Assembly (NCBI GenBank): GCA_963666315.2
Contig: CAXXHG010000010.1
Location: 64,001-128,000 of the forward strand
DNA length: 64,000 nt
Source: Candidatus Binatia bacterium
GTDB taxonomy: Bacteria; Desulfobacterota; Binatia; Bin18
Reading direction: 5' to 3'
Part shown: positions 13,356 through 29,928 of the stretch, piece after piece
How the letters are laid out: every line of letters begins with the position of its first letter
How positions within the stretch are numbered: the first letter of the stretch is position 1
Position numbers and translations under genes: made by a program
Notes under the pieces: generated by a model
Database searches by the model: none
What the model was told of the DNA's origin: nothing
The model's input: the letters and a program-made list of their open reading frames with translations, nothing else

Positions 13356-13470
13356 CGGGCTTTTTCAGATATAATCCTCACCCACAGTCGCTACGCTCCT
13401 GTTTCCCTGTCTCAAAGGATTTGACCTAATCGGCTGTGTTCCACCACCCGACAAACCCACCCACCTCCAC

Positions 13471-16400
13471 TTACGGTCGAAACTGCAACGCCCGAGGCAC
13501 CAGCCGCGACGGCTGAGACACGACCTTATAAGCAGTTTCCACCCACTCACAAATATACCGTCGCGTATCCCTGGGATCGATCATCTCTTCGATCTGGAAT
13601 TTGTTTAACGGACCGAGCGGCCCGCGTGCGCTCTCGATACGCGCATTGAGTTCTGCGCGCAAGGCGGCCGGATCTGGGGCTTCTGCCAACTGACGTTTAT
13701 AGGCGGCTTCGATGCCGCCTTCGGGTGGGATCCCGCCCACATCCGCGGCAGGCCACGTGACGCGTACGGAGGCCTTTGATCGCGGCGTGGCATAGTTGTT
13801 CCCGGCAACGCCAAAACTGCGCCGCATGAGGACGGTGAAGATGGGCACACCGACCTGAGCGAAGGCGACCATCCACTCCGCACCTTTGCGAATTGTACTG
13901 GCGATTTCGTGCTCCAAGCCGACCGCAGTGAGTGCGCCTCCATTGACATGTTTGCTATCAGAAGCAATCACGCCCAAGGGGTGGCCATTGAATCTCACGA
14001 ATCCGGTGACCTGGTCGGTACCCCACAATGGTCCGATCTCAAAAAAAGAGTCCTTGTCTGCCATCAACCTGATGGCCTGTCGAATATCAAATGTCGTGGT
14101 GCGTTTTCTGGCTATGAGGCCGGCGAGCTGCTCTTCACGCCGGGCTATCGGATCACTTGCCGCAAGCACGGGCGGTACTGCATACACACTGGCGGGCAGA
14201 TAGGACAGAAATTGCCTGGTCATTGCCATCGCTTCTTGTTCGGATTCCGCCAAGTTATCGACCGAGCCATTCGTACAGTGGATGCGCCAGCCGCCGAGTT
14301 CCTCCTTAGTAATGTCATAGCCCATGGCATGCGAGACGAGGGGCGGTCCGGCCACAAAGAGCTGCGCGATATCGCGCACCATAATCGAGAAATGACCCAA
14401 TACGGCCTTGGCCGCGCCTATGCCGACAACACTGCCCAGCAGCAGGTTGACCACGGGTATGGTTGATAGCTGTTCGGTGTACATAGACCTGCCCAGGTGT
14501 CCGGGTAGATACGATCCGCCGCCACCGCTTACCCTAGGCCGTCCAGCTTTGATAGCACCCGAGCTTTCTTTGGCGCTACTCTCGCCCTCTTTTTTCTGTG
14601 CCGGAACCATAGTAGCCACACTGCCACCACCGGACGATCCATCCAGCAACCGTAGCGAGGGCATGCACATTTCCGTGGCGAGCCGATCCAGATAGCCACT
14701 CTTGGCGGCAATCGCACCATCCGCATGACCGCCTCGGGAAGTGAAGTCATCCGCACACACGATGACGCTCCGCCGGTCTATTTTCCCCCATCCACCCACA
14801 CTGTTAGCGGGCGTGAAGCCCGTAATTGCGCCGTCTTCATCGTAGGACGCGAAACCCGCGACACTGCCGACTTCGCGAAAGGATCCTTCGTCCAGCAATA
14901 ACGCAATGCGCTCCCGGCACGTCAGCTTGCCACGCGATCTTTGGCGCACCACGCCGGGATCATCGGAGCCGGGCTCCAAGCGCTGCTTCGCAAAGTTTTG
15001 CAATACACGGACTTCTTCCAGCAGAGATTCCCAGGGCTGTTGGCTGTTTGTGTTTGACGACTGTTGAATGTCGCTCTGCGCAGGCGACACGACTGCCACC
15101 ACTTGTCCTGCAGCAACACTATCCCCGGCCTGCAGCGGCTGCAGTGCCGTTACGATGCCCGCACAGCTTGCCGTCAGCATGGTTTCCATCTTCATTGCGC
15201 TCACAACCAGCAGAATGTCACCTGGTGACACCCGGTCACCCTCATGGACACGTATCTCTACGACACAGCTCTCCACCGGACATGCCACAGCCGCCTGGCC
15301 CGGTGCCACCTCTAACGCTGGCATGTCTGTCGTGGCAGACGGCGAAGACCGCATTGATACTGGAGCCGCGCCGCCCATCTTTCCCATTCTGCCCAGCTGA
15401 GCGGCCTGTTGCTGCAACAAGGCGAGAGCGCTGCCTTCAGCAGCGGAGAAAGAAGCGGTATTGATCTCTGGAGCCTCGGCGAACAAGGACGTTCTGGCAT
15501 CACCGGCCTGAACAGACGGGTGGGATAATATCGCGTGCAGTTGGGGCAGGTTGGTTTGCAGACCACCAATGTGGAACTCAACGAGCGCATGCAGCGTGCG
15601 TTCAAGCGCTGCAGAGTACGTACGGGCCGTACAAATGAGTTTCGCCAGCAATGGATCGAACTGCGGCGGTGGGGCATAACCCAGATACCCACACGCGTCC
15701 ACCCGAATGCCCACTCCTGAGGGCTCCTTATACGCCGTAAGACTCCCAGTACTTATGGCGACGACACGTTCCTGCACGGCAAACCCACGCGGCGCGCCCA
15801 CCGCGTGCTGGTCACCGAGACCCAGAGAGGCCAGCGTCGCACCTGCGGCGATATGGAACTGCGCCTCGACCAGATCAATACCAGTGACCTGCTCAGTGAC
15901 CGTATGCTCAACCTGAATCCGCGGATTGCATTCAATAAAAAAATACTCACTAGTCTCAGGCGAGACTAGAAACTCGACTGTACCTGCGTTCACATACGAA
16001 GCAGCCTGCACTAGCGTGATAGCAGCGTTGAGCATCTTCTGCCGCAAATCGGCTTCCAAACCCGGAGCGGGGGCCACCTCAACCACCTTCTGGTGTCGCA
16101 ATTGCACCGAGCAGTCCCGTTCGTGCAGATGGATCACCTCGCCAGAGGAGTCAGCCAGAATTTGTACTTCGATATGTCTCGGTCGCGCGAGCAGCCTTTC
16201 GATAAAAACGGATCCATCACCGAATGCGGCCTGAGCCTCGCTGCGACAACGCTCAAAGGCCTCGGCCATCTGCTCAGCTCGTTCGACGACGCGCATGCCA
16301 CGCCCTCCGCCTCCCGCCGTTGCCTTGAGCATCACTGGATAGCCAAGATTGTTTGCCAGCTTCTCTGCTTCCAGCGCTGATCCCAAGGGATCAGCGCTCC

Positions 16401-16878
16401 CGGGTACGACGGGAATATCCAACGACTCCGCAAGAGCCCGAGCTCTGACTTTATTTCCGAATAATGACAGCGCCTCGGGCGGCGGACCAATGAACGTCAC
16501 CCCCTCGGCGGCACACAACTCAGCAAACGGGGCGTTCTCGGACAAGAAACCATAACCAGGATGCAGACAGTCACAGCCGCGTACTTTGGCGATCTGAATG
16601 AGCGCTTCCGCGTTCAAATACGCACCAACGGCGTCTTGGGCTGTACCGATCTCATGGCTTTCCGTCATAGAGCGCGTATGCAAGGAGAGCGCGTCGATAG
16701 CAGGATACACCCCTACGGATTCCATGCCCAAGGCGGTTGCAGATTTGGCAATCCGAATGGCGATCTCGCCACGGTTACTTATGAGTACGCGTTTATGGAC
16801 TGTGACGTCTTCCTCTCTCACTTGTTCGTGAGCCATTCTCACAGGTATGGCACGGCAGTTCTGCCTGGAATTCTCCAC
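13471..16878 (-). CDS. single-chain biotin carboxylase-BCCP-carboxyltransferase (acyl-CoA carboxylase), likely with an internal deletion in the CT domain
   Basis: NRGEIA, HPGYGFLSE, GGGGRGM, ERDCSVQ, ECNPRIQVEH, AMKM biotin site and CT motifs. True start probably nearer 16836 or 16806. Confidence 0.9.
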   Translation of the reverse strand: MENSRQNCRAIPVRMAHEQVREEDVTVHKRVLISNRGEIAIRIAKSATALGMESVGVYPAIDALSLHTRSMTESHEIGTAQDAVGAYLNAEALIQIAKVRGCDCLHPGYGFLSENAPFAELCAAEGVTFIGPPPEALSLFGNKVRARALAESLDIPVVPGSADPLGSALEAEKLANNLGYPVMLKATAGGGGRGMRVVERAEQMAEAFERCRSEAQAAFGDGSVFIERLLARPRHIEVQILADSSGEVIHLHERDCSVQLRHQKVVEVAPAPGLEADLRQKMLNAAITLVQAASYVNAGTVEFLVSPETSEYFFIECNPRIQVEHTVTEQVTGIDLVEAQFHIAAGATLASLGLGDQHAVGAPRGFAVQERVVAISTGSLTAYKEPSGVGIRVDACGYLGYAPPPQFDPLLAKLICTARTYSAALERTLHALVEFHIGGLQTNLPQLHAILSHPSVQAGDARTSLFAEAPEINTASFSAAEGSALALLQQQAAQLGRMGKMGGAAPVSMRSSPSATTDMPALEVAPGQAAVACPVESCVVEIRVHEGDRVSPGDILLVVSAMKMETMLTASCAGIVTALQPLQAGDSVAAGQVVAVVSPAQSDIQQSSNTNSQQPWESLLEEVRVLQNFAKQRLEPGSDDPGVVRQRSRGKLTCRERIALLLDEGSFREVGSVAGFASYDEDGAITGFTPANSVGGWGKIDRRSVIVCADDFTSRGGHADGAIAAKSGYLDRLATEMCMPSLRLLDGSSGGGSVATMVPAQKKEGESSAKESSGAIKAGRPRVSGGGGSYLPGHLGRSMYTEQLSTIPVVNLLLGSVVGIGAAKAVLGHFSIMVRDIAQLFVAGPPLVSHAMGYDITKEELGGWRIHCTNGSVDNLAESEQEAMAMTRQFLSYLPASVYAVPPVLAASDPIARREEQLAGLIARKRTTTFDIRQAIRLMADKDSFFEIGPLWGTDQVTGFVRFNGHPLGVIASDSKHVNGGALTAVGLEHEIASTIRKGAEWMVAFAQVGVPIFTVLMRRSFGVAGNNYATPRSKASVRVTWPAADVGGIPPEGGIEAAYKRQLAEAPDPAALRAELNARIESARGPLGPLNKFQIEEMIDPRDTRRYICEWVETAYKVVSQPSRLVPRALQFRP

Positions 16879-17155
16879 TAGCCTGCTGTGTATACTGAAA
16901 TTAGCAACTTTATAAGAGTTTTATAACTTCACTAACTTCGCTAACTTCGGTGCTAACGGAGTTCGTGAGCGGACGGATTGTCTCTCCTTGGCCTCACAAT
17001 GCTTCTCACACAAGTGAGACATTAGTTGACGGATCTCCGGTCAGACCAGATTCGCTCACATTCCTGTGCCTGTCGAACCTTGAAGAGAAAGTTTTTCTCA
17101 TCAATAGGGTCATAGTCGATAACGTGCAAGGCAACGATTTTGGGAGAGCAGGTAA

Positions 17156-17172
17156 GGGGTCAGGTCTTGCAA
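17156..17172. repeat. GGGGTCAGGTC-type short dispersed motif (second copy near 50799-50810)
   Basis: GGGGTCAGGTCTTGCAA here and GGGGTCAGGTCC near 50800. Confidence 0.35.
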
Positions 17173-17271
17173 GCAAGCACAAGGTTTGTAAAGGAGATGG
17201 GGGCAGACTGGTCGTTGCCAACCTAGCGTAGACCTGTTGGCACCCTTCGTCGAATTCGCTACCTTTCGCAA

Positions 17272-17556
17272 GTGAGCTACCAATTTGAGTCGGATCCCAC
17301 AAAGGCGACGACGAATCTGAGAGACCATAAAGTTGCTTTTTAAGAAGCATCGACGGTGTTCGGGGATCCATTGGCCCTGTTAATGGCAGACCCTGACCAT
17401 TCAGCAGAAGAGGAGCGGTATCTGGTGATCTGAATGTCCTCAAGGGGGAGATTGCTTGTTGTGAGCCATGCTGAGCGTCCCCCGCGAACGCGCTTGATTA
17501 GTGCGCGGAAAGCAACTCGACCCGAACGGAGACAATATGAAGAAGGTGAAGCCTAG
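17272..17556 (+). pseudogene. BrnT-family toxin pseudogene
   Basis: Hand translation: VSYQFESDPTKATTNLRDHKVAF*EASTVFGDPL...DPDHSAEEERYLVI*MSSRGRLLVVSHAER..RLISARKATRPERRQYEE. In-frame TAA 17341 and TGA 17431. Confidence 0.88.
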
Positions 17557-17791
17557 ACGAACAAGCGAAACGATACAGGACCAAGACACCATGCGTCCAG
17601 AATATGACTTCTCTGGGGCAGCGCGTGGCGTGACGGCAGCTCGTTATACCAAGGAACAAACATCGTGGTCCTGGATCCAGAGGTTCTTGATGTTTTCCCC
17701 GATTGGTGTGGCAGTCAGTGAAGCTCTGCGAGCTTTGGCCCCCATACTGAGACGCCGACAGTCCTCTCGCAAACGCAAGAAGGTGGCTTAA
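17537..17791 (+). pseudogene. BrnA-like antitoxin with two compensating frameshifts
   Basis: MRPEYDFSGAARG..RY, then an alternative frame reads GTNIVVLDPEVLDVFPD before returning to AVSEALRAL. Confidence 0.7.
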
Positions 17792-17823
17792 CAGTTCACT
17801 CCACCCGATCGCGTCCCGCTCAA

Positions 17824-17922
17824 AATGATTGAGGAGTGGGGGCCTGCCCTGGGCAAGCCCTATACCGCACCAATGGGAGAGGGGCTCTTGCAAAGAAGCG
17901 CATGAAGGAGATCAAAAGATGA
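17824..17922 (+). pseudogene. RelE/Gp49-like toxin remnant, internally deleted
   Basis: MIEEWGPALGKPYTAPMGEGL joins directly to a C-terminal LAKKRMKEIKR* overlapping the HTH gene start. Confidence 0.6.
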
Positions 17923-18221
17923 CACGACCAACACTGGCCGGCTTTAAGAAAAAGGCTCTGAAAAACCCAGAAGTCAGAGAAGAATATGAGTCACTCACCC
18001 CTGCCTATGACCTCCGGAGAAAGCTCATCGCCCTCCGTAAAGAAGCAGGCCTCACCCAAGAAGAGCTGGCGAAGCGACTTCATACGAAAAATAGTAATAT
18101 TTCTCGCCTAGAAAACGTGAATTCCTCGATCTCACCGACGCTAACAACAATTGAGGCGTATGCCGAAGCGGTAGGCTATCGAGTAGAGATAAATTTTCGG
18201 CCCGCCTCCCCTTCAACCTGA
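17919..18221 (+). CDS. XRE-family HTH antitoxin (HigA-like)
   Basis: ALKNPEVREEYE..LIALRKEAGLTQEELAKRL..ISRLE..PTLTTIEAYAEAVG. Confidence 0.88.
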   Translation: MTRPTLAGFKKKALKNPEVREEYESLTPAYDLRRKLIALRKEAGLTQEELAKRLHTKNSNISRLENVNSSISPTLTTIEAYAEAVGYRVEINFRPASPST

Positions 18222-18229
18222 CCTCCGCA

Positions 18230-18415
18230 GAAAGGTGATTCCACTCGACAATGGCTGCGGTCTGAATCCGGCTCTGGAACCGATCCGACCTCTCCGATGC
18301 CGGCAGGGTTGCCATCATGCATGGAGTCGGCTATCCCGTACCCTGCCGCTCTCACTTCCGCTGTATGGATATTTGGCACACGGCGGAGCCGATCACGGTC
18401 GGAGATCAGAGCTAG
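18230..18415 (+). pseudogene. DUF1501-family fragment
   Basis: Frame-switching translation gives [12 protein letters not shown] / [32 protein letters not shown], matching the GVGYP-RSHF-DIW motif. Confidence 0.7.
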
Positions 18416-18486
18416 ACGCCAAGCCTATGGTGAAGGGAACGTACGAAACGGTTGGCTGCTTCAACTGATCTGCTAGGAGATAGATT

Positions 18487-18859
18487 GTGGGAAACCATGG
18501 CGTCAAAAAGGTCATTCAGTTTTGTTATGGCCATCGTCTCCTTGACTATGATGGTAAATGCCGGAATCTACATGGCCGTAACGCTCAGTTGGAGATCGAG
18601 ATCGACTCCGGGGGACTGGATCGACTCGAGATGGTCATCGATTTTGGGGAGATCAAGGACATAGCCAAGGGGTGGGTCGATGACCATCTTGATCATAAGA
18701 TGTTACTGCACCGTGACGACCCCATTGCTAAAGTGTTGCCCAACCGCCGAAAATATCACCAAGCTAATCTTCCATACATTGTCCAAGTTGGGACTACACG
18801 TCTCCCGTGTGAGCCTGGGGGAAACACCCAGCATCTGCGCGACCCATAGCGAGGATTAA
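18487..18859 (+). pseudogene. queD: QueD/6-pyruvoyl-tetrahydropterin synthase family, with deletion and frameshift near 18738
   Basis: FCYGHRLLDYDGKCRNLHG, MVIDFGEIK, LDH. The C-terminal PTAENITKLIF...GETP lies in a different frame ending at TAA 18859. Confidence 0.85.
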
Positions 18860-18863
18860 TCCT

Positions 18864-19511
18864 GTGACCAGAGTTGCCGTTTTAGCCAGTGGTGGACTCG
18901 ACAGCAGTGTCTTACTGTACGATCTGGCCAGCACATACGATGTCGCCCCGCTCTATATCGAGAAAGGCTTGGCCTGGGAAACCGAAGAGCGTCGGGCGCT
19001 GAAGCGCTTCGTAGATAGGCTCGATCATCCACGAGTCAGCGCACCCGTGACCTTGCCACTCCTGGTCGATGGGCTGTACGGCAAACACTGGAGTGTCACG
19101 GGTGAGGGCGTACCGGCAGCGGATGAGCCTGACGAAAATGTCTTTCTGCCGGCTCGCAACATTTTGCTCTTTACGGCTGCTGCTATTTGGTGCCTAGCCA
19201 ATGGGGTGCATCGCATCGCAGTGGGCTCGCTGGAGGGCAATCCCTTTCCGGATGCGACGGATGAATTTTTTGCCGATCTGGCGCGGTTGCTGAGTACCGC
19301 GCTGAGTCATGAAATCACCATCGTGGCCCCATACCGGCATTTGACTAAGAAAGCCGTCATCAAGCAATTCCAGCATTTGCCCTTGGCGCTGACCCTGACG
19401 TGCAACGCCCCGCATAGCGGTCTGCATTGCGGCGGGTGCAACAAATGTTACGAGCGGCAGCAGGCATTCATCAAGGCCAAGGTTCAGGACCAGACGCCCT
19501 ATGCGCAATAA
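18864..19511 (+). CDS. queC: QueC-family (7-cyano-7-deazaguanine synthase-like) PP-loop protein
   Basis: LASGGLDS, FLPARN, PFPDA, TC...HCGGCNKC.ER Zn motif. Confidence 0.85.
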   Translation: MTRVAVLASGGLDSSVLLYDLASTYDVAPLYIEKGLAWETEERRALKRFVDRLDHPRVSAPVTLPLLVDGLYGKHWSVTGEGVPAADEPDENVFLPARNILLFTAAAIWCLANGVHRIAVGSLEGNPFPDATDEFFADLARLLSTALSHEITIVAPYRHLTKKAVIKQFQHLPLALTLTCNAPHSGLHCGGCNKCYERQQAFIKAKVQDQTPYAQ

Positions 19512-19562
19512 GACGAGACCGTCGGTAAGCCCCCAACTTTGCTAGCAGGCAAGGAAGAGAAG

Positions 19563-22088
19563 ATGAGTACCCCACTTCGCCTCCACCCCCAAGAACAGAT
19601 TCAGCAGTATCTCGATCCTGACTCGTTACCGGCACAGCCGCCACCCCTCATATTCTTGTCGATGCCGTTCGGGCTGCCGTATATGCCGTCGCTGGGTCTG
19701 TCGTTATTGAAGGCCGGTTTGGCGACGCGGGGCATTGCCGCCGATATCCGCTACCTAGGGATGACATTTGCCCAAACCATCGGCTACCCGTTTTATCAGC
19801 GCTTGGCGCATGGCGGCTCGAGCGATCTGGGAGATTGGATTTTTTACCGGGCACTCTACGGACCGCCATCGGCTTCGCAAATCGAGCGGTTTTGGCAACT
19901 GCAATTTGCAGACGGGTCGCCGCGCGGCATGGCAACCAGCTTTGAAGCCTTGCAGGAGCGCGTGGCCCAGGCGCAAGTGCGCGCCTGCGAGTTTATCGAC
20001 CACTGCCTGCACGAGATCGATTGGGCGCAGTATCGCATGGTCGGATTCACCACCATGTTCCAACAGAACCTAGCCTCACTGGCCCTGGCCGGGCGCATCA
20101 AAGAGATGCATCCTGACGTCCAGATCTTGTTCGGCGGACCGAATGCCGAGGGCGACATGGGTGCCGGTCTCATGGCATGCTTTCCGTTCATTGACTTTGC
20201 CTTTTCGGGAGAATCGGACGACCGCTTCCCGGCCTTTGTGGAAGCGATCTTAGCCGCTGAGCCCATCCCCTTAACGGGTGTGATCTCGCGCCATACACCC
20301 GGCGGCGCCGTACGCCTGCCCACCAATTGGGGCGGCCCCATTCATGACATGGATGCCCTGCCGTATCCAAACTTCGATGATTTCTACGCTCAGTTCAACG
20401 CGGCTTTCCCCGAGTTGCAACCGCACCTGAACTACGAAACCGCACGCGGCTGCTGGTGGGGAGCGAAGAGTCACTGCACCTTTTGTGGTTTGAACGGCTT
20501 GACGATGGCCTTTCGCAGCAAATCGCCGGACCGGGCCATTGACGAGATCAGTTTTCTGCACCAGCGATATATGGACCCGAACCGGGTCGTGCTCATGCAG
20601 CCGGCCGATCAGATCTTGGATTTACGGTATTTTGACTCGATGATTCCGCGCCTGCCCACCGCAGCGCCCGGCATTCCGACCTTCTTCGAGATCAAGGCCA
20701 ACTTGAGCCGCGACCAGGTCGCAGCCCTGGCCACAGCGCATGTGCACATTGTGCAACCGGGCATCGAGAGTCTCAGTAGCCAGGTGCTCAAATTAATGCG
20801 CAAAGGTTGTACCTTGTTGCAGAATATCCAGCTCTTAAAATGGTGCGCGGAGTTCGGCTTGCACGCCATCTGGAACTTGCTGTATGGATTTCCCGGAGAG
20901 TGTGAGGCAGATTATCAGCAGACCTCCGAGGCGGTGCCGCTGATCGCTCATCTGCAGCCGCCGAAGAAGTTCTTTGCCATTGAGCTCGATCGCTTTAGCC
21001 CCTATTTCACATCGCCCCAAGAGCTAGGCGTGAAAAATATCCGCCCGCCAGAAATTTTTTCGATCCTCTACCCGTTCGATGCCCAGCATCAATACGATAT
21101 TTGCTATACGTTCGATTTTGACTATATCGAATCCCGCGAGGCCACCACCTATCTGGGCTCCTCCCTGGACCGGGTTGCGCGATTATGGATGCGGACGCGG
21201 CAACGGGGCGCCTTGGTGGGGTTTTACGATGCAGAACGCCTGTTGATCTGGGACAGCCGTATCGGCGCCGTTAATGCCTGGGTCGAAATCCATGGGCCGT
21301 ATCGCGAGGCGTTGCTGCAAGCTGACCGTATTCTGGTAGAGAACCGGTTGAGAGATGTCTTTGCCGATGCGATCGGTGCAGCAGACGCGCAGACGACGCT
21401 GGATGATTTTTTGGCGTGCATGCAGCACCGTGGATTCGTGTTGCGTGAGGATGGACGGCTGCTGTCCTTAGTTGTGCTCAACGCCGTCTCGGATCACCTC
21501 CCCGCTGTATCCGAGGATCAAGTCGTCCACATCGCGCCTCGCCTCAACGACATGCCGGACGCTGGCATCGTCGCATTTGGTGGTGCGGCCATCGACGACG
21601 TGCTTGCCCGTCCACCGGATGACAGCGACCGGTATCAAGTCGTCCTGACCGGGCAGATCCTCCGCATATCGCGCATATCGCGCATGTCGACGGATGATAC
21701 TCAAGGCATTGACGGCGTGTGTGTGGTGGAATCGTTTTGGGGCGTCTCAGCATTTCGTTTGAGCGGTACGGTGCAGATGGCTCAGGGTAAGCCTACACGG
21801 CTTGCTCTGACTGCGGAGCGGGTCAGCGGCTTTGAGGCCGGACCATGGACCCTGGAGTTCGAGTCCGGCGATCACGGCTCGATCGACGCCGCCGGGGCCC
21901 GCCTCAGCGGCGATGCCCACTACCATGATGCGGTCAATCCATCTCTGCCGCTGCGTATGGCAGTCGAGGCTCTCACCGCGCCGGACGGATCGCGCCAGAT
22001 GCGCTTCAGCGCCACCGGAGAGGGCTTTTACTACGCCAGTTTTCTGGCCGCCGGTGAGAGTGTCGGCGGGGCTGAATCCGTTTTTTAA
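19563..22088 (+). CDS. RiPP-maturation-type cobalamin-binding radical SAM enzyme (TIGR03975-like) with a long C-terminal extension
   Basis: MPF..PSLGLSLLKA, VGFTTMFQQNLASLALA, GGPN, ETARGCWWGAKSHCTFCGLN (CX7CX2C), FEIKANL, QPGIESLS, WNLLYGFPGE, HLQPP, DRFSPYF. Confidence 0.9.
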   Translation: MSTPLRLHPQEQIQQYLDPDSLPAQPPPLIFLSMPFGLPYMPSLGLSLLKAGLATRGIAADIRYLGMTFAQTIGYPFYQRLAHGGSSDLGDWIFYRALYGPPSASQIERFWQLQFADGSPRGMATSFEALQERVAQAQVRACEFIDHCLHEIDWAQYRMVGFTTMFQQNLASLALAGRIKEMHPDVQILFGGPNAEGDMGAGLMACFPFIDFAFSGESDDRFPAFVEAILAAEPIPLTGVISRHTPGGAVRLPTNWGGPIHDMDALPYPNFDDFYAQFNAAFPELQPHLNYETARGCWWGAKSHCTFCGLNGLTMAFRSKSPDRAIDEISFLHQRYMDPNRVVLMQPADQILDLRYFDSMIPRLPTAAPGIPTFFEIKANLSRDQVAALATAHVHIVQPGIESLSSQVLKLMRKGCTLLQNIQLLKWCAEFGLHAIWNLLYGFPGECEADYQQTSEAVPLIAHLQPPKKFFAIELDRFSPYFTSPQELGVKNIRPPEIFSILYPFDAQHQYDICYTFDFDYIESREATTYLGSSLDRVARLWMRTRQRGALVGFYDAERLLIWDSRIGAVNAWVEIHGPYREALLQADRILVENRLRDVFADAIGAADAQTTLDDFLACMQHRGFVLREDGRLLSLVVLNAVSDHLPAVSEDQVVHIAPRLNDMPDAGIVAFGGAAIDDVLARPPDDSDRYQVVLTGQILRISRISRMSTDDTQGIDGVCVVESFWGVSAFRLSGTVQMAQGKPTRLALTAERVSGFEAGPWTLEFESGDHGSIDAAGARLSGDAHYHDAVNPSLPLRMAVEALTAPDGSRQMRFSATGEGFYYASFLAAGESVGGAESVF

Positions 22089-22180
22089 GACACCCGATCG
22101 GTACCTTTGGCGGCTTCGACGTACAGGCTTTCGCTTTGCCGCCGCGCCAACACTCGTCCCTCATCATCGTTTAACATCGC

Positions 22181-23497
22181 TTAACGTGCGTCAAGTTTTG
22201 CTACATAGTCCCAGAATGACGGATTGCCAGGAGAAACGCGAGCCAAGGTTAGCGGCCATTCGTCATTTTCATCAGAGCCATCTCCGTCGCCTGGGGGTGA
22301 GTCGACGTGAAGTGGCCGTTGATCCGAAAACTCAAAGCCCTCGGGTAACGAATGATCTTGCCGATTGCCCAGTGACCCAACGGGCTGAGGCAGGTGCAAT
22401 ATCGACTGAAAGATGCGATTCCATACTGCGCATGAGTGGTCAATAGCATACCAGTCGCGAACCATATGCGAGGCATGACTGACGAGCCGTTGGTATAGGT
22501 CAGGACCCGCCCAGAGCCGCATCAAACAATCAGCCGCGGCTGACGCATCGCCGATGGGAAACAGCATACCGGTTTCTTCGTGGCGCAGCGCCCGTTCCAG
22601 CCCCGACCCGTAGTATCTTGACGACACAACCGCCACATTCCTGGCCATGGCTTCATACACGACAAAAGGGCCGGTATCCGTCCACGAGGTCAGCAGCAGC
22701 ACATCACGGCCCGGGTGCATATGCGTCCAAGTGTCTTCCGGTGCCAACCGGCCCAGCAACCGTGCCGAGCCATTGTGTATCCAGGGCTGTATACGCCGCC
22801 GGAATTCGGCTTCGTCCGGCCCCAATCCTATGACCGTGAGTTCGAAGGGTACGGATCGCGCGTCCAGTGCATCGAGAATCAGGGGAATGTCATGCACGCG
22901 TTTGTCCGGCCAGTCGATCCGCCCAACGTAAAAGATGCTTAGGCGGTCGGCGCGATGTCTGGGTGGTGCAACCTGACGGGCAGAAACGCCGTAAGGTCCA
23001 TAACAGACGCGCTCGGGCGCCATCCCGCCCAAGGTGATGACAAGCTGCCTGGTGAGCTCATTGGTGCAGATCACTGCGTCGAGAACGTGAGCCCAATCCG
23101 CAATGTCTTTCAACAATCCCTCATCAATCATCTGGGCGGACATGGCAATCCTCGGCATGGATAGACCCGCTGACCGACACTCGCCCACCACCACCACTGC
23201 ATCCGTGACATTCAGAGTAATCACGAGGTCGGGCTGGATCGATTGGATCGCCCGGCGCAGTGCGTCGCGCCGGCCCTCAGGGGTGCCCGTCGTGCAGGAA
23301 ATCCGCACCCATTCCTGGTGCGGATGCTGCTCCAGGTAGCGTTCCGGACGGTGAAATTGCCTCCCCTGCAGTAATCCGATGCTGACCCGCCAGCCGCCAT
23401 TGCGCAGTCCCGGCTCGATGTAGTCAAGCCAAGTGGCGGCGCCACCGAGCGTATGAGCAGTCCGGTTGAGAAACAGGATGTGTGGTTGCATACGCAC
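22181..23497 (-). CDS. GT4-family glycosyltransferase
   Basis: GG near the N-terminus, YVGRI..DKRV, LLLTSWTDTGPFVVYEAMA, GMLFPIGD. Confidence 0.85.
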   Translation of the reverse strand: MRMQPHILFLNRTAHTLGGAATWLDYIEPGLRNGGWRVSIGLLQGRQFHRPERYLEQHPHQEWVRISCTTGTPEGRRDALRRAIQSIQPDLVITLNVTDAVVVVGECRSAGLSMPRIAMSAQMIDEGLLKDIADWAHVLDAVICTNELTRQLVITLGGMAPERVCYGPYGVSARQVAPPRHRADRLSIFYVGRIDWPDKRVHDIPLILDALDARSVPFELTVIGLGPDEAEFRRRIQPWIHNGSARLLGRLAPEDTWTHMHPGRDVLLLTSWTDTGPFVVYEAMARNVAVVSSRYYGSGLERALRHEETGMLFPIGDASAAADCLMRLWAGPDLYQRLVSHASHMVRDWYAIDHSCAVWNRIFQSILHLPQPVGSLGNRQDHSLPEGFEFSDQRPLHVDSPPGDGDGSDENDEWPLTLARVSPGNPSFWDYVAKLDAR

Positions 23498-23530
23498 GGC
23501 TACCGAGCAAAGCGGGTGAGAGACGCGTAC

Positions 23531-24148
23531 TCAGTGCAAGGCAGGACCGTGCACCCAACCGGCCAATACAATCCGGGTACCACCCGTGAGGGGGGAAACC
23601 GTATGGATTTCGTGGGCGGGAAAGAAGACCGCATCCCCTTGCTGCATGGTAATCGTATCTATTTCGGCCACGGTTAACACACCACCCGAAAAATCGTCTG
23701 ACGGAACCAGTTGCATGATACAGCTCAACTTACTTGAGTCCGGTAGGCGGTAGTCGCGATCCACGTGCGGCCGTGTCCAGTATCCATCTACGTATCTCAG
23801 GACTCGAAAGGTTTCGGCAATACCCGTCAGTGACAACTGCCAATATTCCTGATTCAACTCGGCAGCGGTTGTCGCCATCTTTGCGTAGACAAATTCCGCT
23901 TCCGCCGGCGTCACTTCACAGGTCTCAACCTGTACCGCGCCCGTTTCGCCATAACGGGAGTGGTCGAAATGCCGATACCCTTTATGTGCCGCAATCGCCA
24001 CCAGCCGCTCACATTCACTCTGAGATAACAGCCCCGTGCGGCACACATGGGAGGGCATTCTCCGAGAGAAGAGTGGGATCGGGTACAGAATTGACTGTGA
24101 TACGTCCGTCGTGCTGACACCTTTTCCGCAATAGATAGGGTTCGGCAA
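23531..24148 (-). CDS. 2OG-Fe(II) oxygenase (prolyl-hydroxylase-like)
   Basis: LRY..GY..PHVD, KLS, DFSGG.L, FFPAHEIHTVSPLTGGTRIVL.GW (HxD...H...R). Start uncertain. Confidence 0.88.
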   Translation of the reverse strand: MPNPIYCGKGVSTTDVSQSILYPIPLFSRRMPSHVCRTGLLSQSECERLVAIAAHKGYRHFDHSRYGETGAVQVETCEVTPAEAEFVYAKMATTAAELNQEYWQLSLTGIAETFRVLRYVDGYWTRPHVDRDYRLPDSSKLSCIMQLVPSDDFSGGVLTVAEIDTITMQQGDAVFFPAHEIHTVSPLTGGTRIVLAGWVHGPALH

Positions 24149-24405
24149 CGAAGTTATGGCCCAGCCATGATGGTGTCAAGGCTTTTGTAAGGAAGCCGGG
24201 ATCGACCACCTTACGGTTGGAGCCAAGCTGGTTCTACGCCATAAATGAGACACGGACACAAGGCGGACTCGGGCCGATAATGAAATCCTCGGCGGTCAAA
24301 ATCTCCCGCGACTGAGCCTATAGGCCATTTCGACATGCACACGATAATGATCAATACTCGTGAGCCGAATCGAAGGTCGATAGTAACTTACCAGGAGGCG
24401 ATGAT

Positions 24406-25755
24406 ATGGATGCCAACGCAGTGAGGCAGCACATTGAAAAGGAGCCGATCAATCAATGGGCACAAAGGCTGGGCGTAACTGCCACCACAGGCCATGATCA
24501 GCTCATCGGACAGACTCTACGGATTCATGGCAAGGGAGCTTTCGAGGTCAACCGTATTGAGGGCAGTGAAATCTACCTCAATGGTAAAGAGAGACCCATA
24601 CCCATCAGTGTGTTAACCGATGAGAACGGGGAATATTCGGCTTGGAAGGCAGACGGGAGTCGATTTGCCGCAAGAGTCAATGTCGTGACCGGTAACAGCG
24701 GTGCCCGCTCGCAAGAAGATCGACAGCACAGCCGCAAGCCGAGACAGTCCACGTCATCCAAGCGACAGCTGGAGCAGCTAGAGCAGCTGAACAAGGCGGG
24801 GGCGGAGATTCCGGCGACCGATGTCAAAGAAATCAACCACATGTTCTTAGTGCGGAATCCAGATGCGCTACACCGTACCGATCCATTGAACGTTGTCTTT
24901 GGCTTTGAGATGGCCAAAATCACCTATGTGGACCCGATTGGAAAAGTCCCAAAAGCCCTTGAACAGCCAGGGATTGGATTCAAAGAGGTTCGCGCCTTCG
25001 ATTCCAAGAACACGGACACGCAGGCATTCATCGCGGTAACGCCGGATGAAAAGGGCATTGTGATTGCGTTCCACGGTACGACGCCGGGCAAGGACATCTT
25101 GACCGATCTCAGCGTATCCTTTGACGATTTCGCGCTTGGTGGACAGGCGCATGAGGGCTTCCAAGACTACGTTCGTGGCGTGAAGGAGCTCATATACGAA
25201 CACCTTGAGAAGGTTATGCGGCGATACCCTGACGCCAAGATTTTTGGCGCGGGCCATAGCCTGGGTGCCGCCGCTATTGTTAACTTCATTGGTACAGCGT
25301 TGGGGGAAGGTGTCATCGAAGCCGCCCAGGTAGGCAGGGTGGTGCTGGCAGGTTCTCCAAGAGGGTTCGATAGGGAAGCCGCCCGGCTCTTCAACAAACT
25401 CATCCGAGCAAGAGTCGACCGATGCGTGAACGCCTCAGACATTGTGACCAAGCTGCCGGCGCTTCTTGCCTCAGTGGTTGCCAGTCTCTTGGCCTTGTTT
25501 CAGTCGGACGCTCATCCCGGCTTCTACAAGCATATCGGTACCTTTGCTCCGAACGTCTTCTTCGACGACAAGAGGAGAGAGACGTCGGAGCGGTCATGGG
25601 TCTATCGGATTTGGGAGCGGATACGCAGCCTGAAGGGCCAAGCGACGGACCATTTCTTGGATAACTACCTGAAGTGCGGTCACCGCTGGTTGGAGGAAAA
25701 GGGTCAGCTGCCGGATGAGAACGTGAGTCAACGCTTGGCCTCTGGAGCCTATTGA
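24406..25755 (+). CDS. class 3 lipase (Lipase_3) with an uncharacterised N-terminal region
   Basis: IAFHGT, AHEGF, GHSLGAA, GSPR, DIVTKLP, H.G, DHFLDNY. RBS AGGAGG. Confidence 0.85.
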   Translation: MDANAVRQHIEKEPINQWAQRLGVTATTGHDQLIGQTLRIHGKGAFEVNRIEGSEIYLNGKERPIPISVLTDENGEYSAWKADGSRFAARVNVVTGNSGARSQEDRQHSRKPRQSTSSKRQLEQLEQLNKAGAEIPATDVKEINHMFLVRNPDALHRTDPLNVVFGFEMAKITYVDPIGKVPKALEQPGIGFKEVRAFDSKNTDTQAFIAVTPDEKGIVIAFHGTTPGKDILTDLSVSFDDFALGGQAHEGFQDYVRGVKELIYEHLEKVMRRYPDAKIFGAGHSLGAAAIVNFIGTALGEGVIEAAQVGRVVLAGSPRGFDREAARLFNKLIRARVDRCVNASDIVTKLPALLASVVASLLALFQSDAHPGFYKHIGTFAPNVFFDDKRRETSERSWVYRIWERIRSLKGQATDHFLDNYLKCGHRWLEEKGQLPDENVSQRLASGAY

Positions 25756-26032
25756 GTAGCGCAAGATTCGTCCTCCGACCGAGTTTACTTTCCCGTACGC
25801 ACGCGCGCTCCTTAATCACGCCTGCTCCAAGTGCCCGGCCGCTTTTGAGTGTGGCGGCGCATTCTGCGACCTGCGCCATTTCGTCATACTGGTATGAGTC
25901 GACGGCTATCCGATCGGGGATTTGCGAGCCGAACAGCTGTCCCCCCTTCTTGCATCAGGGATCAGACGATATACAAATAACTGCGCAATGGACCCCTCGT
26001 AGGGAGCCCCTTGTGTGGCCAGGAGGAAAACC

Positions 26033-27274
26033 ATGCAGAGAGCTTTGAGCGGCATCCGTATCCTAGACATGACCCACGTCCAGATGGGGCCGTCCTGCAC
26101 CCAGATTCTAGCCTGGCTCGGTGCCGACGTCATCAAGGTCGAATTGCCGGGCCGGGGTGATATCACCCGCCAGCAGCTGCGCGACCTGCCTGACGTCGAC
26201 AGTCTGTATTTCACCATGCTCAACTGTAATAAGCGCAGTATCACCATTAACACCAAGACCACCAAGGGTCAGGAAATCTTTCGCAAACTCATCGAGGTGT
26301 GCGACCTACTCGTCGAAAATTTCGCGCCCGGCGCCCTGGACAGACAGGGGTTCAGCTGGGACGTTATCCACAAGATTAATCCTCGCATGATCTATGCCTC
26401 CGGCAAGGGGTTTGGCCCGGGTCCGTTCGTGGACTTCAAGGCGTACGAGACCGTCGCCCAGGCCATGGGCGGTGCCATGAGCACCACCGGCTGGGAGGAT
26501 GGCCCGCCGACCAGTACGGGCGCCCAGATCGGGGATTCCGGGACCGGCATACATCTCGTCTCGGCTATTCTGGCCGCACTCTTTCAGCGCGAGAAAACCG
26601 GACGCGGTCAGCGGGTCGAGGTCGCCATGCAGGATGCGGTGCTGAATCTGTGCCGGGTCAAGCTGCGCGACCAGCAGCGGCTTGCGCACGGTCCCTTGAA
26701 AGAATACCCCCAATATCTCACCAACACCTTCGGCGACGCGGTGCCGCGTTCCGGCAACGCGTCTGGGGGTGGCCATCCCGGTAGAGCGCTCAAATGTGAG
26801 CCCGGCGGCCCCAACGACTACATCTATGTGATCATCCAGGCCCAAGTCTGGCAGTCGCTGATGAAGCTCGTCGGACGTGAGGATCTCGGCGGCCATCCGG
26901 ATTACGCAACACCGGACGTCCGCCTGCCGCACCTGGATGAGTGTTTCAAAATTGTCGAAGCATGGACGCAGCAGCGTACGAAGTATGAAGCCATGAAACT
27001 CCTCAACGAGGTCAACATTCCCTGCGGCCCGATCCTCGACATGAAAGAGTTGCTGGAGGATGAGTCGCTGGCCGCGCAGGGCATTATAGTCGAGATCGAG
27101 CATCCCGAACGCGGGACATTCAAGACTATCGGCTGCCCGCTCAAGCTTTCGGATTCACCCGTTAAGGTGAAGACCTCGCCTCGACTCGGAGAGCATACCG
27201 AGGAAATCCTGAGGGAGCTTGTCGGTTACGGGGATAAGGATGTCGAGGCGGCGCGGGCCGAAGGCGCGATCTGA
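26033..27274 (+). CDS. frc: formyl-CoA transferase
   Basis: [66 protein letters not shown]. Confidence 0.93.
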
Positions 27275-27373
27275 AGCCGGCGAGCCATCGATTTTGGCCG
27301 GGCTGTCTCGCCTCGGGGAGATATAATGAGGGACGTTGGGTGGGAAGAGTGACATCTTTATCCAGGGAGGATT

Positions 27374-27955
27374 ATGGCTAGACGGGTAAGTTCCTGGTGG
27401 GTCTTGGGAATGGTGCTCTGTACCCTATTCGTTGCACGGGGTGGCACTGCTGACGGCCATACCAAACAGGTGACAGCAGATAGGCTTTCCTTTCGAGTCC
27501 CTGCTGACTGGATTCAGCAGACTCCGGCGAGCTCGATGCGGAAAGCGCAGTTCGAGATCCCCGCCAAGAATGACGACAAGGAAGCAGCCTCTCTGGTAGT
27601 GTACTACTTTGGTCCGAATCAGGGCGGGTCGGTCGAGGCGAACCTCAAAAGGTGGGAGCAGCAGTTCGAAGTGCCCGAAGGTACGTCACTCGCAGAGGTC
27701 AAAAAAATGGAAGAGAAGCGGCTCGCCGGGCTAAACGTGACCATTCTGGAGCTCGCCGGGACCTATGTGGCTCCTCTCTCCCCCCGAAATCCTAACGTAC
27801 GCCACAATAAGCCCAACTTCCGATTGTTTGCCGCGGTGGTAGAGACTGTCGACGGCCCCTTCTTCTTCAAAATTATAGGGCCGGCGCAAACCATGGACCA
27901 GCAGCGTGGGCAGTACATGCAGCTCATTGATTCGCTCAGCTTCCAGGCGAAATAG
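27374..27955 (+). CDS. secreted conserved hypothetical protein
   Basis: Signal peptide. SSMRKAQF, GGSVEANLKRW..QF and GP.FFKIIGP are motifs of a widespread uncharacterised family. Confidence 0.75.
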   Translation: MARRVSSWWVLGMVLCTLFVARGGTADGHTKQVTADRLSFRVPADWIQQTPASSMRKAQFEIPAKNDDKEAASLVVYYFGPNQGGSVEANLKRWEQQFEVPEGTSLAEVKKMEEKRLAGLNVTILELAGTYVAPLSPRNPNVRHNKPNFRLFAAVVETVDGPFFFKIIGPAQTMDQQRGQYMQLIDSLSFQAK

Positions 27956-27959
27956 ACGC

Positions 27960-29537
27960 ATGTCGCTCATTACCTGGTCCTGGCTCTTTCTCATCATCTA
28001 TATCGGCGCGATGCTCGCCATAGGCGTCGTGGGGCAAAGGCGGGTCAAACACGCAGATGACTTCGCGACGGCGCGCGGCTCGTACGGACCCATCTTCTTG
28101 GCCTTTGCCTTTGCGGCCACAACGGCCAGCGGTGCGACTTTTCTCGGCAGACCTGCACTTGGCTACGAGTGGGGTCTACCTACGATCTGGGGGACCTTCC
28201 TATACCCGATCGGGGTGTATTTTGGCGTCCTGATATCGATGCGGCTGATTGCGACGTCGGGTAACCGGTTTGGGAATCGATCCATACCGGAATACCTCGG
28301 AGACCGCTACCAATCCGAGGGCATTCGGGTGCTGGTCGCGGTGTTTTCCTTGGTGTTGTTTTTCTATCTCGCCGGCCAATTGGTCTCCGGGCTGGTGATG
28401 TTCGAGATTATGCTCGGCTTGTCCCCGCTGTGGGCGCTGCTCATCACGACGACCGTGTTGTCGATTTACGTCGTGCTCGGCGGCGCTCATGCCGATATCC
28501 TCACCGATGGGGTTCAGGGATGCATGATGCTGCTGGTTGCCGTCGTGGTCATCGTGCTGTTTGTGACGGGCTACGGCGTCGCAGGTGGCACAGGTGGACT
28601 AAACGGTCTGCTAAGCCTCGTCGACAACTTGGCCCAGCAGGATGAAAACTTGGTCGGTGTGCTCAATACTGAAACAGCCCTGTATCATTCCTGGTGGTCA
28701 ATTGTCGCAATTTTCATTTCCCACATCCCGCTCGGCCTGCTACCGCACATCGGCAATAAACTCTGGGCACTGAAAGACACGAGTCAGCAGAAAACCTTCA
28801 TCAAACTCGCTTTTACGTTTGGGCTGACCTTGGGCATGCTGGGTTTGGCGGGTCCGCTTGCCCGTGCGGTGTTGGGCGATGCATTATACGCTGCCGGTGC
28901 GAACCCGAATCAGGCGCTGCCGCTGCTCTTCATCGAGTTGTTTCCCACCTGGCTGGCGGCGTTGGTTGGCGTCGGCGTTCTTGCGGCGATCATGTCGACC
29001 GCAGACGGGCTGGTCGTGTCCTCATCCCAAGTGATTGCGAATGATCTCTACCGGCGGACTATCATCCCCAGACTGAAAAACGCTCCAAGTGGCGAACACC
29101 TCGATCGGCAGATTTTGTTCATCAGTCGGGTGTCTACAGTCGTAGTGCTGGTGCTATGTATGGCCCTGGCGTGGGCGTTGGTCGAGACCAACATCGCGCT
29201 CATTATATGGATCGGGAACGGTGGCATGATGGCCGCTTTTGCCGGTCCTTTAGTGGTCGGTGCGCTGTGGCGCGGGGTGACACGCAAAGGGGCGTATGCC
29301 GGCCTTGTCAGCGGCTTCGTCACCTTCCTCGTTCTGCATACCCAAATGCTTGATCCCGTTTGGTTTGGACCCGGTGCAGTACACGATGTCGTCGTATGGC
29401 TCCATACCGAAGGCCCCAGTCCGTTCTCCTGTGCGGCTATGGGAGAAATCATGTCGGTCGCCTGCACCTATGGCGTATCTAAATCGACCCAGCCGCTGCC
29501 TGAATCGCATATGAAGGCGTTGCTTGAAGGCGCATAG
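27960..29537 (+). CDS. sodium:solute symporter family (PanF/PutP-like)
   Basis: Many TM helices, ATTASGATFLG, EYLGDRY, YVVLGG..ADILTD.VQG, AAIMSTADG. Confidence 0.9.
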   Translation: MSLITWSWLFLIIYIGAMLAIGVVGQRRVKHADDFATARGSYGPIFLAFAFAATTASGATFLGRPALGYEWGLPTIWGTFLYPIGVYFGVLISMRLIATSGNRFGNRSIPEYLGDRYQSEGIRVLVAVFSLVLFFYLAGQLVSGLVMFEIMLGLSPLWALLITTTVLSIYVVLGGAHADILTDGVQGCMMLLVAVVVIVLFVTGYGVAGGTGGLNGLLSLVDNLAQQDENLVGVLNTETALYHSWWSIVAIFISHIPLGLLPHIGNKLWALKDTSQQKTFIKLAFTFGLTLGMLGLAGPLARAVLGDALYAAGANPNQALPLLFIELFPTWLAALVGVGVLAAIMSTADGLVVSSSQVIANDLYRRTIIPRLKNAPSGEHLDRQILFISRVSTVVVLVLCMALAWALVETNIALIIWIGNGGMMAAFAGPLVVGALWRGVTRKGAYAGLVSGFVTFLVLHTQMLDPVWFGPGAVHDVVVWLHTEGPSPFSCAAMGEIMSVACTYGVSKSTQPLPESHMKALLEGA

Positions 29538-29640
29538 AGCCGCGCAGGGCAACATAAGCAAATCCTCTAGACCGTAGTAACAGGTATGGCCTCCCGCGGA
29601 GGCATTTGCAAAATAGTAAGGCCGGGCGAGGTCAAGACTT

Positions 29641-29667
29641 GTCATTCTGAGCGAAGCAAAAAATCTC
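29641..29667. repeat. REP-like GTCATTCTGAGCGAAGC element
   Basis: GTCATTCTGAGCGAAGCAAAAAATCTC resembles a widespread dispersed palindromic repeat. Single copy in the window. Confidence 0.4.
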
Positions 29668-29928
29668 TCAACCGTAATCCCCCCACCCTGATTCGCCCAT
29701 AAGAGGCAGACACATGGAATGGGGCTGGCAATGGGTATTCCCAGCTTCGCGGATCGGGACAGATCCCGGTCAGGAGTCTAGTGGTAGAAACATCGGCTCG
29801 CAGTATAATTAGAGTTGGGCGGCTTGCGCTCTCGAGAGCCGGTACGGCATCGAAACAGAACAAGCGCTCCAGCGACACGCTAGTATTGAAACTGGTGCAC
29901 TCAACCACCAGATCTGGGGAACTCGTAG

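Follow-up and report, generated by a model that had tools for sequence, protein, structure and literature searches.

Clusters for 7-deazapurines of the toyocamycin/huimycin type encode a QueE homolog together with QueC and QueD, and the B12-binding radical S-adenosylmethionine (SAM) C-methyltransferases of family TIGR03975 include proteusin-type enzymes such as PoyB/PoyC. Pterins are methylated by B12 radical SAM enzymes in methanopterin biosynthesis, and pteridine glycosides are made by group-1 glycosyltransferases; we know of no QueC-like enzyme in either pathway. A block of genes at positions 18473-24158 of a 64,000-nucleotide stretch (the window) of a Candidatus Binatia bacterium genome (GenBank assembly GCA_963666315.2, contig CAXXHG010000010.1, positions 64,001 to 128,000) combines a queD-like gene, a queC-like gene, and a long TIGR03975-type radical SAM gene with convergent genes for a GT4-family glycosyltransferase and a 2-oxoglutarate (2OG)-Fe(II) oxygenase. 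Our analysis points, with a probability of roughly 45%, to a small-molecule pathway in which a pterin carboxylate derived from QueD is tailored; such chemistry would fit the locus better than the deazaguanine-linked peptide considered when the DNA was interpreted from its letters alone (the sequence-only reading).

Canonical QueC (TIGR00364) corresponds to Cluster 1 in the available part of a 2026 survey of the PF06508 family (PMC13329287), which derives from Escherichia coli mutants a signature of SGGxDS, YxQxHxxE, VPxRN, YPDC, Y189, and a zinc motif; variants Y35A, Y131A, and Y189A were inactive, and Y131F retained partial activity. The same available text describes Cap9 of type IV CBASS and QatC of the Qat defense system as QueC-fold ligases that attach 7-carboxy-7-deazaguanine (CDG) to the N-terminus of a protein.

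A Conserved and Mobile Gene Block

The order queD, queC-like gene, long radical SAM gene, and convergent 2OG oxygenase gene recurs in three lineages, with different flanks in each: that of the window and of L145 (a metagenome contig near-identical to it, with 99.7% protein identity for the radical SAM enzyme and 99% for QueC), and those of loci L148 (the same as genome locus L015) and L150. The cassette genes are 52-83% identical at the protein level across these lineages, and a tblastx comparison of the window with L148 found homology only within the limits given above, with no other shared segment. The order and orientation of the five genes, and the gaps of about 4 and 50 bp noted from the sequence alone, were confirmed: the true queD stop (TAA, 18857-18859) is followed after 4 nt by the GTG start of queC at 18864, and 51 nt separate the queC stop from the radical SAM ATG at 19563. 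The glycosyltransferase and oxygenase genes converge on these three, the oxygenase gene being the first of the minus-strand pair.

Gene neighborhoods were surveyed from both sides. Among 80 metagenome loci encoding relatives of the radical SAM enzyme, queD and queC are present in three (L145, L148, and L150, in each directly upstream of the radical SAM gene), the oxygenase in two (L148 and L150), and the glycosyltransferase in one (L148). The long form of the enzyme is found in only six of these loci (L145-L150), and in two of the six the view is partial, L149 starting inside the radical SAM gene and L145 ending inside it, with the downstream genes out of view. Long-form homologs do, then, co-occur with queC and queD, the recurrence that the sequence-only reading had proposed to look for. 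In 80 genome loci encoding relatives of the QueC-like protein, fetched and searched by tblastn, a true radical SAM homolog (at L015), the glycosyltransferase, and the oxygenase were each detected once, and the lipase, helix-turn-helix (HTH) regulator, and other flanking genes of the window in none. Eleven weak radical SAM matches (21-23% identity) in those loci are HpnJ where scanned; a B12 radical SAM gene near the queC-like gene in Binatia loci, considered as a possible partner, is likewise the hopanoid enzyme HpnJ (718 bits), and its position is a coincidence.

A relative of the radical SAM enzyme at E ≤ 1e-30 is present in 56 of 401 same-phylum genomes sampled, the best being 40% identical and ending near residue 650; none was found in the 12 same-class genomes of the sample or in the same-genus genome G110. 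A DNA search of G110 with window positions 12000-30000 left 16000-27900 unmatched apart from one short stray match elsewhere.

Some variation surrounds a constant core. The glycosyltransferase is 61% identical to the L148 gene at the same position, and the oxygenase is kept in L148 (70%) and L150 (63%). L148 also has two methyltransferase-like open reading frames (ORFs) between the radical SAM and glycosyltransferase genes and a ferritin-like gene (PF12902) before the oxygenase; L150 has no glycosyltransferase, and a 305-aa ORF of unknown kind precedes its oxygenase. The HTH_3 regulator upstream of queD was matched by tblastn only in L145 and lies outside the conserved block. The core of the cassette is thus QueD, the QueC-like protein, the barrel-fused radical SAM enzyme (described below), and the oxygenase, with the glycosyltransferase as a frequent addition (two of the three lineages). 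Two genes from the L150 cassette (L150:11974-14805, minus strand) lies a 943-aa ORF with an extracellular contractile injection system (eCIS) core region and a C-terminal ADP-ribosyltransferase exoenzyme domain, followed by a family 11 glycoside hydrolase (GH11) xylanase with carbohydrate-binding module (CBM) domains.

The sequence-only reading had allowed that the region might be a patchwork and the adjacency accidental. That unrelated genes were joined in a rearranged region and share no function now appears very improbable: such an origin would account for the flanks that vary between lineages, the broken queD, the absence of the glycosyltransferase in L150, and the radical SAM genes of L146 and L147, which stand alone among transposases, but the same gene order is repeated in three lineages with the block alone conserved, the cassette QueC-like proteins are monophyletic, and three long-form radical SAM hits and cassette-clade QueC clusters have longest contigs of the same size (7629, 5402061, and 9786). 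On this comparative evidence the block is accessory and horizontally acquired, and the adjacency of its genes is not accidental. In L146 (3090-10120) and L147 (323-1381) the 67% identical radical SAM gene lies amid DDE/Mu-type transposases, IstB, a serine recombinase, and HNH genes, settings consistent with carriage of the radical SAM gene by mobile elements.

A Distinct Subfamily of QueC-Like Proteins

Against TIGR00364 the QueC-like protein scores 67.1 bits (equivalog cut-off 150.3), and subfamily members at other loci score 51-82 bits. Motif positions were mapped by hidden Markov model alignment to PDB chain 2pg3 and by an alignment of the subfamily. Like the canonical preQ0 (7-cyano-7-deazaguanine) operon (queD-queE-queC), the block places a QueD of PTPS-I type directly upstream of a PF06508 protein that retains SGGxDS (SGGLDS, residues 9-14), the P-x-R-N of VPxRN, and the zinc motif Cx8CxxCxxC (C180-x8-C189-xx-C192-xx-C195), and it likely shares ATP-dependent carboxylate activation with that operon; the SGGLDS and zinc motifs are invariant in the subfamily alignment. 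Unlike the canonical operon, it has no queE, and the remaining signature motifs are changed throughout the subfamily: YxQxHxxE has become xGLxWE (the Y35 position is variable, Q37 is replaced by an invariant Leu, and H39 by an invariant Trp), YPDC has become FPDA (the Y131 equivalent is Phe), and Y189 is an invariant Pro. Three motif positions required by canonical QueC are changed in the QueC-like protein, one of them conservatively. The subfamily, recognizable by GLxWE, NPFPDA, and CNAP, comprises 2326 database hits, mostly of about 215 aa, and its proteins are labeled 7-cyano-7-deazaguanine synthase by PGAP and JGI.

A maximum-likelihood tree of 36 rows sets the 31 subfamily rows apart, on a long branch with full support, from five genome-derived rows of canonical or Cap9-like QueC (YGQRH-type QueC). 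Within the subfamily, the cassette QueC-like proteins (window, L148, L150, and P0005-P0026) group as a single clade (support 99/97), and the L150 protein has the same sequence as P0026, a protein assigned by NCBI to Teredinibacter purpureus. The sequence-only reading had set its proposal against a QueC that was the only copy of the genome and clustered with housekeeping preQ0 synthases; the protein is indeed the only QueC copy, and it falls outside the housekeeping clade.

The kinship with Cap9 or QatC that had been entertained did not hold. The protein reaches 25 bits on the QatC model NF041925, whose cut-off is 280; PADLOC gave 21 bits for QatC and 70 bits for its CBASS QueC model, and no other cassette protein fits a defense model, bar a generic 2OG match, with no CD-NTase or Qat partner found. 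The likeness lies in a QueC scaffold probably put to non-tRNA use and in a similar distance to Cap9, since the subfamily profile is equidistant from Cap9 and Bacillus subtilis QueC (47 bits each). The cassette differs in having no CD-NTase, Cap10, or QatA/B/D neighbors, the 215-aa protein has neither the extensions of QatC nor the truncation of Cap9, and Cap9 retains Y/FxQ..E and YxDC, which are absent from the subfamily. Judged by scores, altered motifs, and absent partners, the QueC-like protein is distinct from canonical preQ0 synthases, from Cap9, and from QatC. No description of the subfamily or the cassette was found in the literature searched; the ten clusters in the available part of PMC13329287 include no such group, and the supplementary tables of that study may place it in Cluster 1.

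A Pathway Apparently Independent of QueE

The genome neighbors of the subfamily suggest another setting for these proteins. In the 80 genome loci they include a class I methyltransferase (57 loci), QueD (33), a short-chain dehydrogenase/reductase (SDR) with its highest scores against pteridine-reductase models (29), a BMP-family binding protein (27), and FolE (9). NCBIfam scans of 70 neighbor ORFs from 16 loci bear out these names and revealed no QueE, and all of the neighboring QueDs aligned have CxxxHGH, given as the PTPS-I motif in the available part of PMC5041015. The two methyltransferases of L148 were considered as the usual methyltransferase of the subfamily and rejected (only 27% identity over 75 residues).

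Fourteen subfamily genomes were searched: the subfamily gene is the only PF06508 member in ten, a QueE-like gene is present in five (the same five by two different models), and Tgt is present in eight. Sampling of 121 Dehalococcoidia genomes found the subfamily in six, including the starting genome, and among the five new ones a weak QueE-like match was obtained in one and Tgt in three; in the pooled set of Dehalococcoidia subfamily genomes, no QueE-like gene was detected in 13 of 15 and no Tgt in 8 of 15. In two genomes the QueC-like protein coexists with a canonical QueC (G438, 98 and 221 bits, and G562, the holder of L015, 92 and 235 bits). In Pfam and NCBIfam scans the window block, L148, and L150 all came up without a queE-like gene, unlike the toyocamycin/huimycin-type clusters. 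The deazaguanine conjugation considered in the sequence-only reading found no support: queE is absent from every cassette lineage, and the subfamily is found mostly in genomes without detectable QueE. The pathway of the subfamily appears not to depend on QueE, its company points to pterin or purine-like metabolism, and the QueD and QueC-like pair of the cassette would be a module borrowed from this wider QueE-independent pathway (with its methyltransferase, SDR, FolE, and binding protein).

A separate 184-aa Cap9-like QueC of the YGQ..E type was seen in the Dehalococcoidia genome G435 (C1:706281-708674), about 1.2 kb from a QueE-like gene; this genome has no Tgt, and the two genes may form a separate deazaguanine system.

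Could the pair nevertheless be genuine preQ0 genes, in which QueD, a divergent but functional QueC, and the QueE of the host restore queuosine or supply the core of a 7-deazapurine glycoside, to be tailored by the radical SAM enzyme, the oxygenase, and the glycosyltransferase? Clusters for preQ0 glycosides such as huimycin do pair que genes with a glycosyltransferase. The check for a separate que pathway in the genome gave a divided answer: QueE (G000:C43:78903-79472, TIGR04508 356 bits, cut-off 240) and Tgt (contig C15) are present and there is no second QueC, which leaves the cassette gene as the sole PF06508 gene beside them. The database names agree with a preQ0 synthase, the SGGxDS, P-x-R-N, and zinc motifs are kept, and the Phe at the Y131 position recalls the partly active Y131F of E. 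coli; the positions of Y35 and Y189, each essential in the E. coli enzyme according to the available text of PMC13329287, are not Tyr. Further points against are the Dehalococcoidia genomes without QueE or Tgt, the genomes in which a canonical QueC is encoded alongside, and the lack of queE in every cassette. The complete same-genus genomes G110 and G422 contain no PF06508 QueC (only P-loop matches of 23-25 bits), and an orphan QueE is the normal state of the genus, because these genomes keep QueE without any QueC. On balance a preQ0 role seems quite unlikely.

The core QueE of the genus is syntenic (ptsI, IHF, queE, a Xer-like recombinase, and Hsp20; TIGR04508 353-360 bits; G110:C1:2729496-2730125 and G422:C1:284478-285110), and in G110 and G422 the orphan enzyme has no obvious route to preQ0.

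The Radical SAM Enzyme and Its Predicted Fused Barrel

The radical SAM gene is intact, as had been noted, with 841 aa from the likely start ATG 19563 and the cluster motif C305-x7-C313-x2-C316; the ORF is open from TTG 19539, and the ATG start gives the length of database cluster P0124. The protein matches TIGR03975 at 570.9 bits (cut-off 281.85; model positions 3-606, residues 39-646), and the cobalamin-binding model PF02310 gives 25.4 bits (gathering 32.1) in a region inside that match. It resembles the TIGR03975 enzymes of ribosomally synthesized and post-translationally modified peptides (RiPPs) in the full-length model match, the CX7CX2C motif, and the B12-binding-like N-terminal region. 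It differs in that no precursor gene was found beside it, in having QueD and a QueC-like protein as partners instead of a leader-peptide system, and in about 200 C-terminal residues beyond the family model (homologs are 833-872 aa long), predicted to form a beta-barrel.

A query of 210 C-terminal residues matched only 15 protein clusters among 5.8 billion, all fused to a radical SAM domain (506-872 aa, 12 of them 833-872 aa); there are three further, short hits, and for two of these the contig is smaller than 1.6 kb. Conserved motifs of the extension are VVESFWG, RxSGF, and GxGFxYAxFLAxGE..GGAE, and a conserved tail rich in Gly (GES[LV]GGAE..), of low model confidence, comes after the predicted barrel. 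Two AlphaFold models predict eight antiparallel strands at pLDDT (predicted local distance difference test) values of about 60-82, the models as a whole having mean values of 51 and 54. Alignment with VIA-align against 48,161 chains placed the Cyc15 Diels-Alderase first (Z 10.0, rmsd (root-mean-square deviation) 3.2, 114 residues), a score modestly above the usual best background of 7-8 for unrelated models; outer-membrane barrels, further Diels-Alderases, DUF3224, pyocyanin demethylase, allene oxide cyclase, dirigent proteins, and avidins followed. There was no Pfam match and no usable Atlas hit, BLAST gave no alignment with the 134-aa tail proteins described below, and in a full-length model the catalytic core (residues 400-555) has pLDDT below 50, too poor to judge docking of the tail into the active site. 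As a lead, the extension is a candidate ligand-binding barrel like those of natural-product enzymes.

Short-form relatives offer a different view of the family. At 74 loci (L151-L224, for example L160:1719-6785 and L169:3312-8508; 36-45% identity) the enzyme shares an operon with an S8 subtilase (~630 aa), a protein of ~134 aa ending SPPPDFGPxN[FYW], and a 2OG-like protein of ~220 aa, the cluster of peptidase and tail protein being present at 57 of these loci and that of the 2OG-like protein at 34. This operon looks, from its gene content, like an undescribed peptide-tail modification system. The cassette oxygenase was considered as specific kin of the 2OG-like protein and rejected, hhalign having aligned only the iron-binding core (probability 0.3); the pairing of this radical SAM family with a 2OG enzyme would be older than the cassette, the two 2OG groups not being specifically related.

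Alternatively, the cassette might modify a ribosomal peptide or protein tail, possibly the C-terminal tail of the radical SAM enzyme itself, with the QueC-like protein ligating a QueD-derived carboxylate (6-carboxytetrahydropterin, or CDG by way of the host QueE) to a peptide amine and the glycosyltransferase then adding a sugar. The strong family match, the short-form operons, and the Gly-rich tail of the long-form proteins are in favor, as are the precedents of Cap9 and QatC as ligases acting on protein N-termini (available part of PMC13329287) and the equal nearness of the subfamily profile to Cap9 and B. subtilis QueC. We consider this rather unlikely. The sequence-only reading had found no precursor peptide, and none emerged here: a tblastx comparison of the three cassettes revealed no small ORF conserved among them, though short or distant precursors could escape it, as could one encoded elsewhere, and in 30 relatives' loci, the homologous loci that it had proposed to scan, none of 150 small ORFs on the strand of the radical SAM gene and no more than 1.5 kb from it fits any NCBIfam precursor family. 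The subfamily is without such a radical SAM enzyme in 79 of 80 genome loci, where it stands beside small-molecule enzymes; the QatC score is far below its cut-off, and PADLOC found no defense partner. As to the family model, the available part of PMC12350317 cites TIGR03975 as typically RiPP-related, and in one study clusters called by the antiSMASH TIGR03975 rule were dropped as likely false positives (PMC9426513, available part).

A Broken queD Gene

The sequence-only reading had described queD as damaged, and two lesions bear this out. Alignment to the intact 136-aa queD of L145 shows that 38 nt are absent after 18738, with a resulting frameshift, so that the N-terminal part (18487-18738) and the C-terminal part (18740-18859) lie in different frames. 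The zinc-ligand motif reads HGR (CRNLHGR), whereas L145 and each of the eight further QueD sequences in the comparison have HGH; CxxxHGH is found in the intact QueDs of L145, L148, and L150 and in five non-cassette QueDs. Logan contigs of four runs were aligned to window positions 18200-24300. Contigs of run X1, the probable source run, carry the deletion at a depth of only 2.9, and those of X2, X3, and X4 (marine or seawater metagenomes from three studies) have 37 extra letters at 18739; one 19.8-kb contig among the latter spans the entire block to 24300. Three marine metagenome runs contain the same cassette with an intact queD, and queD is a pseudogene in the window strain.

Over its first 84 codons queD differs from L145 by 15 nt and seven amino acids, against 22 nt and two amino acids in queC; queC is thus under purifying selection and queD is not. 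The window cassette is therefore decaying, or is fed by another PTPS paralog (contig C24). Identity to L145 over 18200-21857 is a mosaic (radical SAM 99.7%, queC 96.6%, queD 94%, and upstream sequence 93%), which suggests recombination inside the cassette or very uneven constraint.

Features of the Window

The genes of the block and the upstream regulator are listed in Table 1. In the oxygenase, the iron triad H128-x-D130 ... H182 is invariant across the alignment of relatives. As the sequence-only reading had reported, queE, queF, folE, and tgt are absent from the window: no queE or tgt was found there, a FolE query gave no match in it, and the sole QueF match (PF14489) was below threshold and outside it. 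Rfam searches for riboswitches or other RNAs gave no match between 16500 and 25000 (E ≤ 0.1), and in nine related loci no match reached the gathering score; counts from a promoter and terminator scan were not above those of shuffled sequence. The GC content of the block resembles that of the remainder of the window, and in RNA runs at most 0.07 of the sampled words were present.

Table 1. Features of the gene block and its upstream regulator (window coordinates)
Feature	Coordinates	Strand	Evidence
HTH_3 (Xre-type) regulator, upstream	17829..18221	+	PF01381 42 bits
queD-like ORF	18487-18849	+	PF01242 68 bits, profile positions 3-77 of 121 matched
queD pseudogene, PTPS-I type (6-carboxytetrahydropterin synthase)	18487..18859	+	two PF01242 matches in different frames
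QueC-like PP-loop ATPase with zinc site, 215 aa	18864..19511	+	PF06508 95 bits
Long-form B12-binding radical SAM enzyme, TIGR03975	ORF 19539-22088, likely start ATG 19563	+	571 bits
Fused C-terminal domain of the radical SAM enzyme, approximately residues 700-849	21636..22088	+	alignment and models; predicted eight-stranded antiparallel beta-barrel
GT4-family glycosyltransferase, 438 aa	22181..23497	-	PF00534 58 bits, PF13692 57 bits
2OG-Fe(II) oxygenase, 205 aa	23531..24148	-	PF13640 46.6 bits (gathering cut-off 27)

Two further features lie upstream. A stretch of about 40 nt at 18346-18392, just before queD and within a 77-aa ORF (18235-18468), is matched by many unrelated contigs and has much higher depth in all four metagenome runs compared, which suggests a piece of some multicopy gene or motif. 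On the minus strand at 13471-16878, one 1135-aa ORF combines biotin carboxylase, biotinyl carrier, and carboxyltransferase domains.

Proposed Pathway and Implications

In the small-molecule pathway that we propose, FolE, encoded elsewhere in the genome, would supply dihydroneopterin triphosphate, and QueD of the PTPS-I type would convert it to 6-carboxytetrahydropterin. The QueC-like protein, with its intact ATP loop and zinc site and a seemingly remodeled substrate pocket, would use ATP to activate this carboxylate, or a compound closely derived from it, giving an amide or a nitrile or ligating it to an amine; the ring contraction by QueE would not be needed. The B12 radical SAM enzyme, a radical methyltransferase-type enzyme occupying the place beside queC in the cassette, may then bind the product within its fused beta-barrel and methylate it at carbon, and the oxygenase and the glycosyltransferase may hydroxylate and glycosylate it. 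The methanopterin and pteridine glycoside pathways provide, by analogy, precedents for the proposed C-methylation and glycosylation of GTP-derived pterins. The tailoring cassette envisaged in the sequence-only reading is supported in part: the conserved unit stands, the likeness to Cap9 and QatC does not, and neither a link to deazaguanine nor a precursor peptide came to light.

Several points weigh against this pathway. The QueC-like protein is the only PF06508 QueC of the window genome, alongside the core QueE and Tgt, and in the Binatia-type genomes G440 and G441, which have QueE and Tgt, the subfamily gene is again the only PF06508 member and could be a working preQ0 synthase. The searches for QueE used two models at E ≤ 1e-5, which a QueE of unknown type could escape. 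TIGR03975 is curated as a RiPP maturase family, and the short-form relatives favor a peptide substrate for it; the long-form locus L147 and its near-twin L146 are without queC and queD and have transposase, integrase, and HNH genes instead. The barrel models are of low overall confidence, and the leading structural match is only a little above background. The data show the identities of the genes, a conserved and mobile block, a separate QueC-like subfamily that occurs in genomes where QueE is not detected, and the lesion in queD; from these we infer the substrate, the order of the steps, and the product.

A wider interpretation, which we offer tentatively, is that the subfamily belongs to an unrecognized, QueE-independent branch of GTP-derived metabolism in which 6-carboxytetrahydropterin is amidated or converted to a nitrile and then methylated. 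The product, a pterin-based metabolite or cofactor, would be widespread among Dehalococcoidia, Binatia, Planctomycetota, and Acidimicrobiia. The cassette would then be a mobile natural-product offshoot of that branch, with the barrel-fused B12 radical SAM enzyme in place of the usual class I methyltransferase.

QueC homologs are named 7-cyano-7-deazaguanine synthase by default, and a subfamily lacking residues on which the canonical enzyme depends shares the name; if its substrate is a pterin carboxylate, a new branch of pterin metabolism would be added and a widespread annotation corrected. That a "RiPP-type" B12 radical SAM enzyme, joined to a ligand-type barrel, takes part in what appears to be small-molecule chemistry bears on the trust placed in RiPP predictions based on TIGR03975. 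If a culturable strain of Teredinibacter purpureus carries the L150-type cassette, the question could be tested at the bench.

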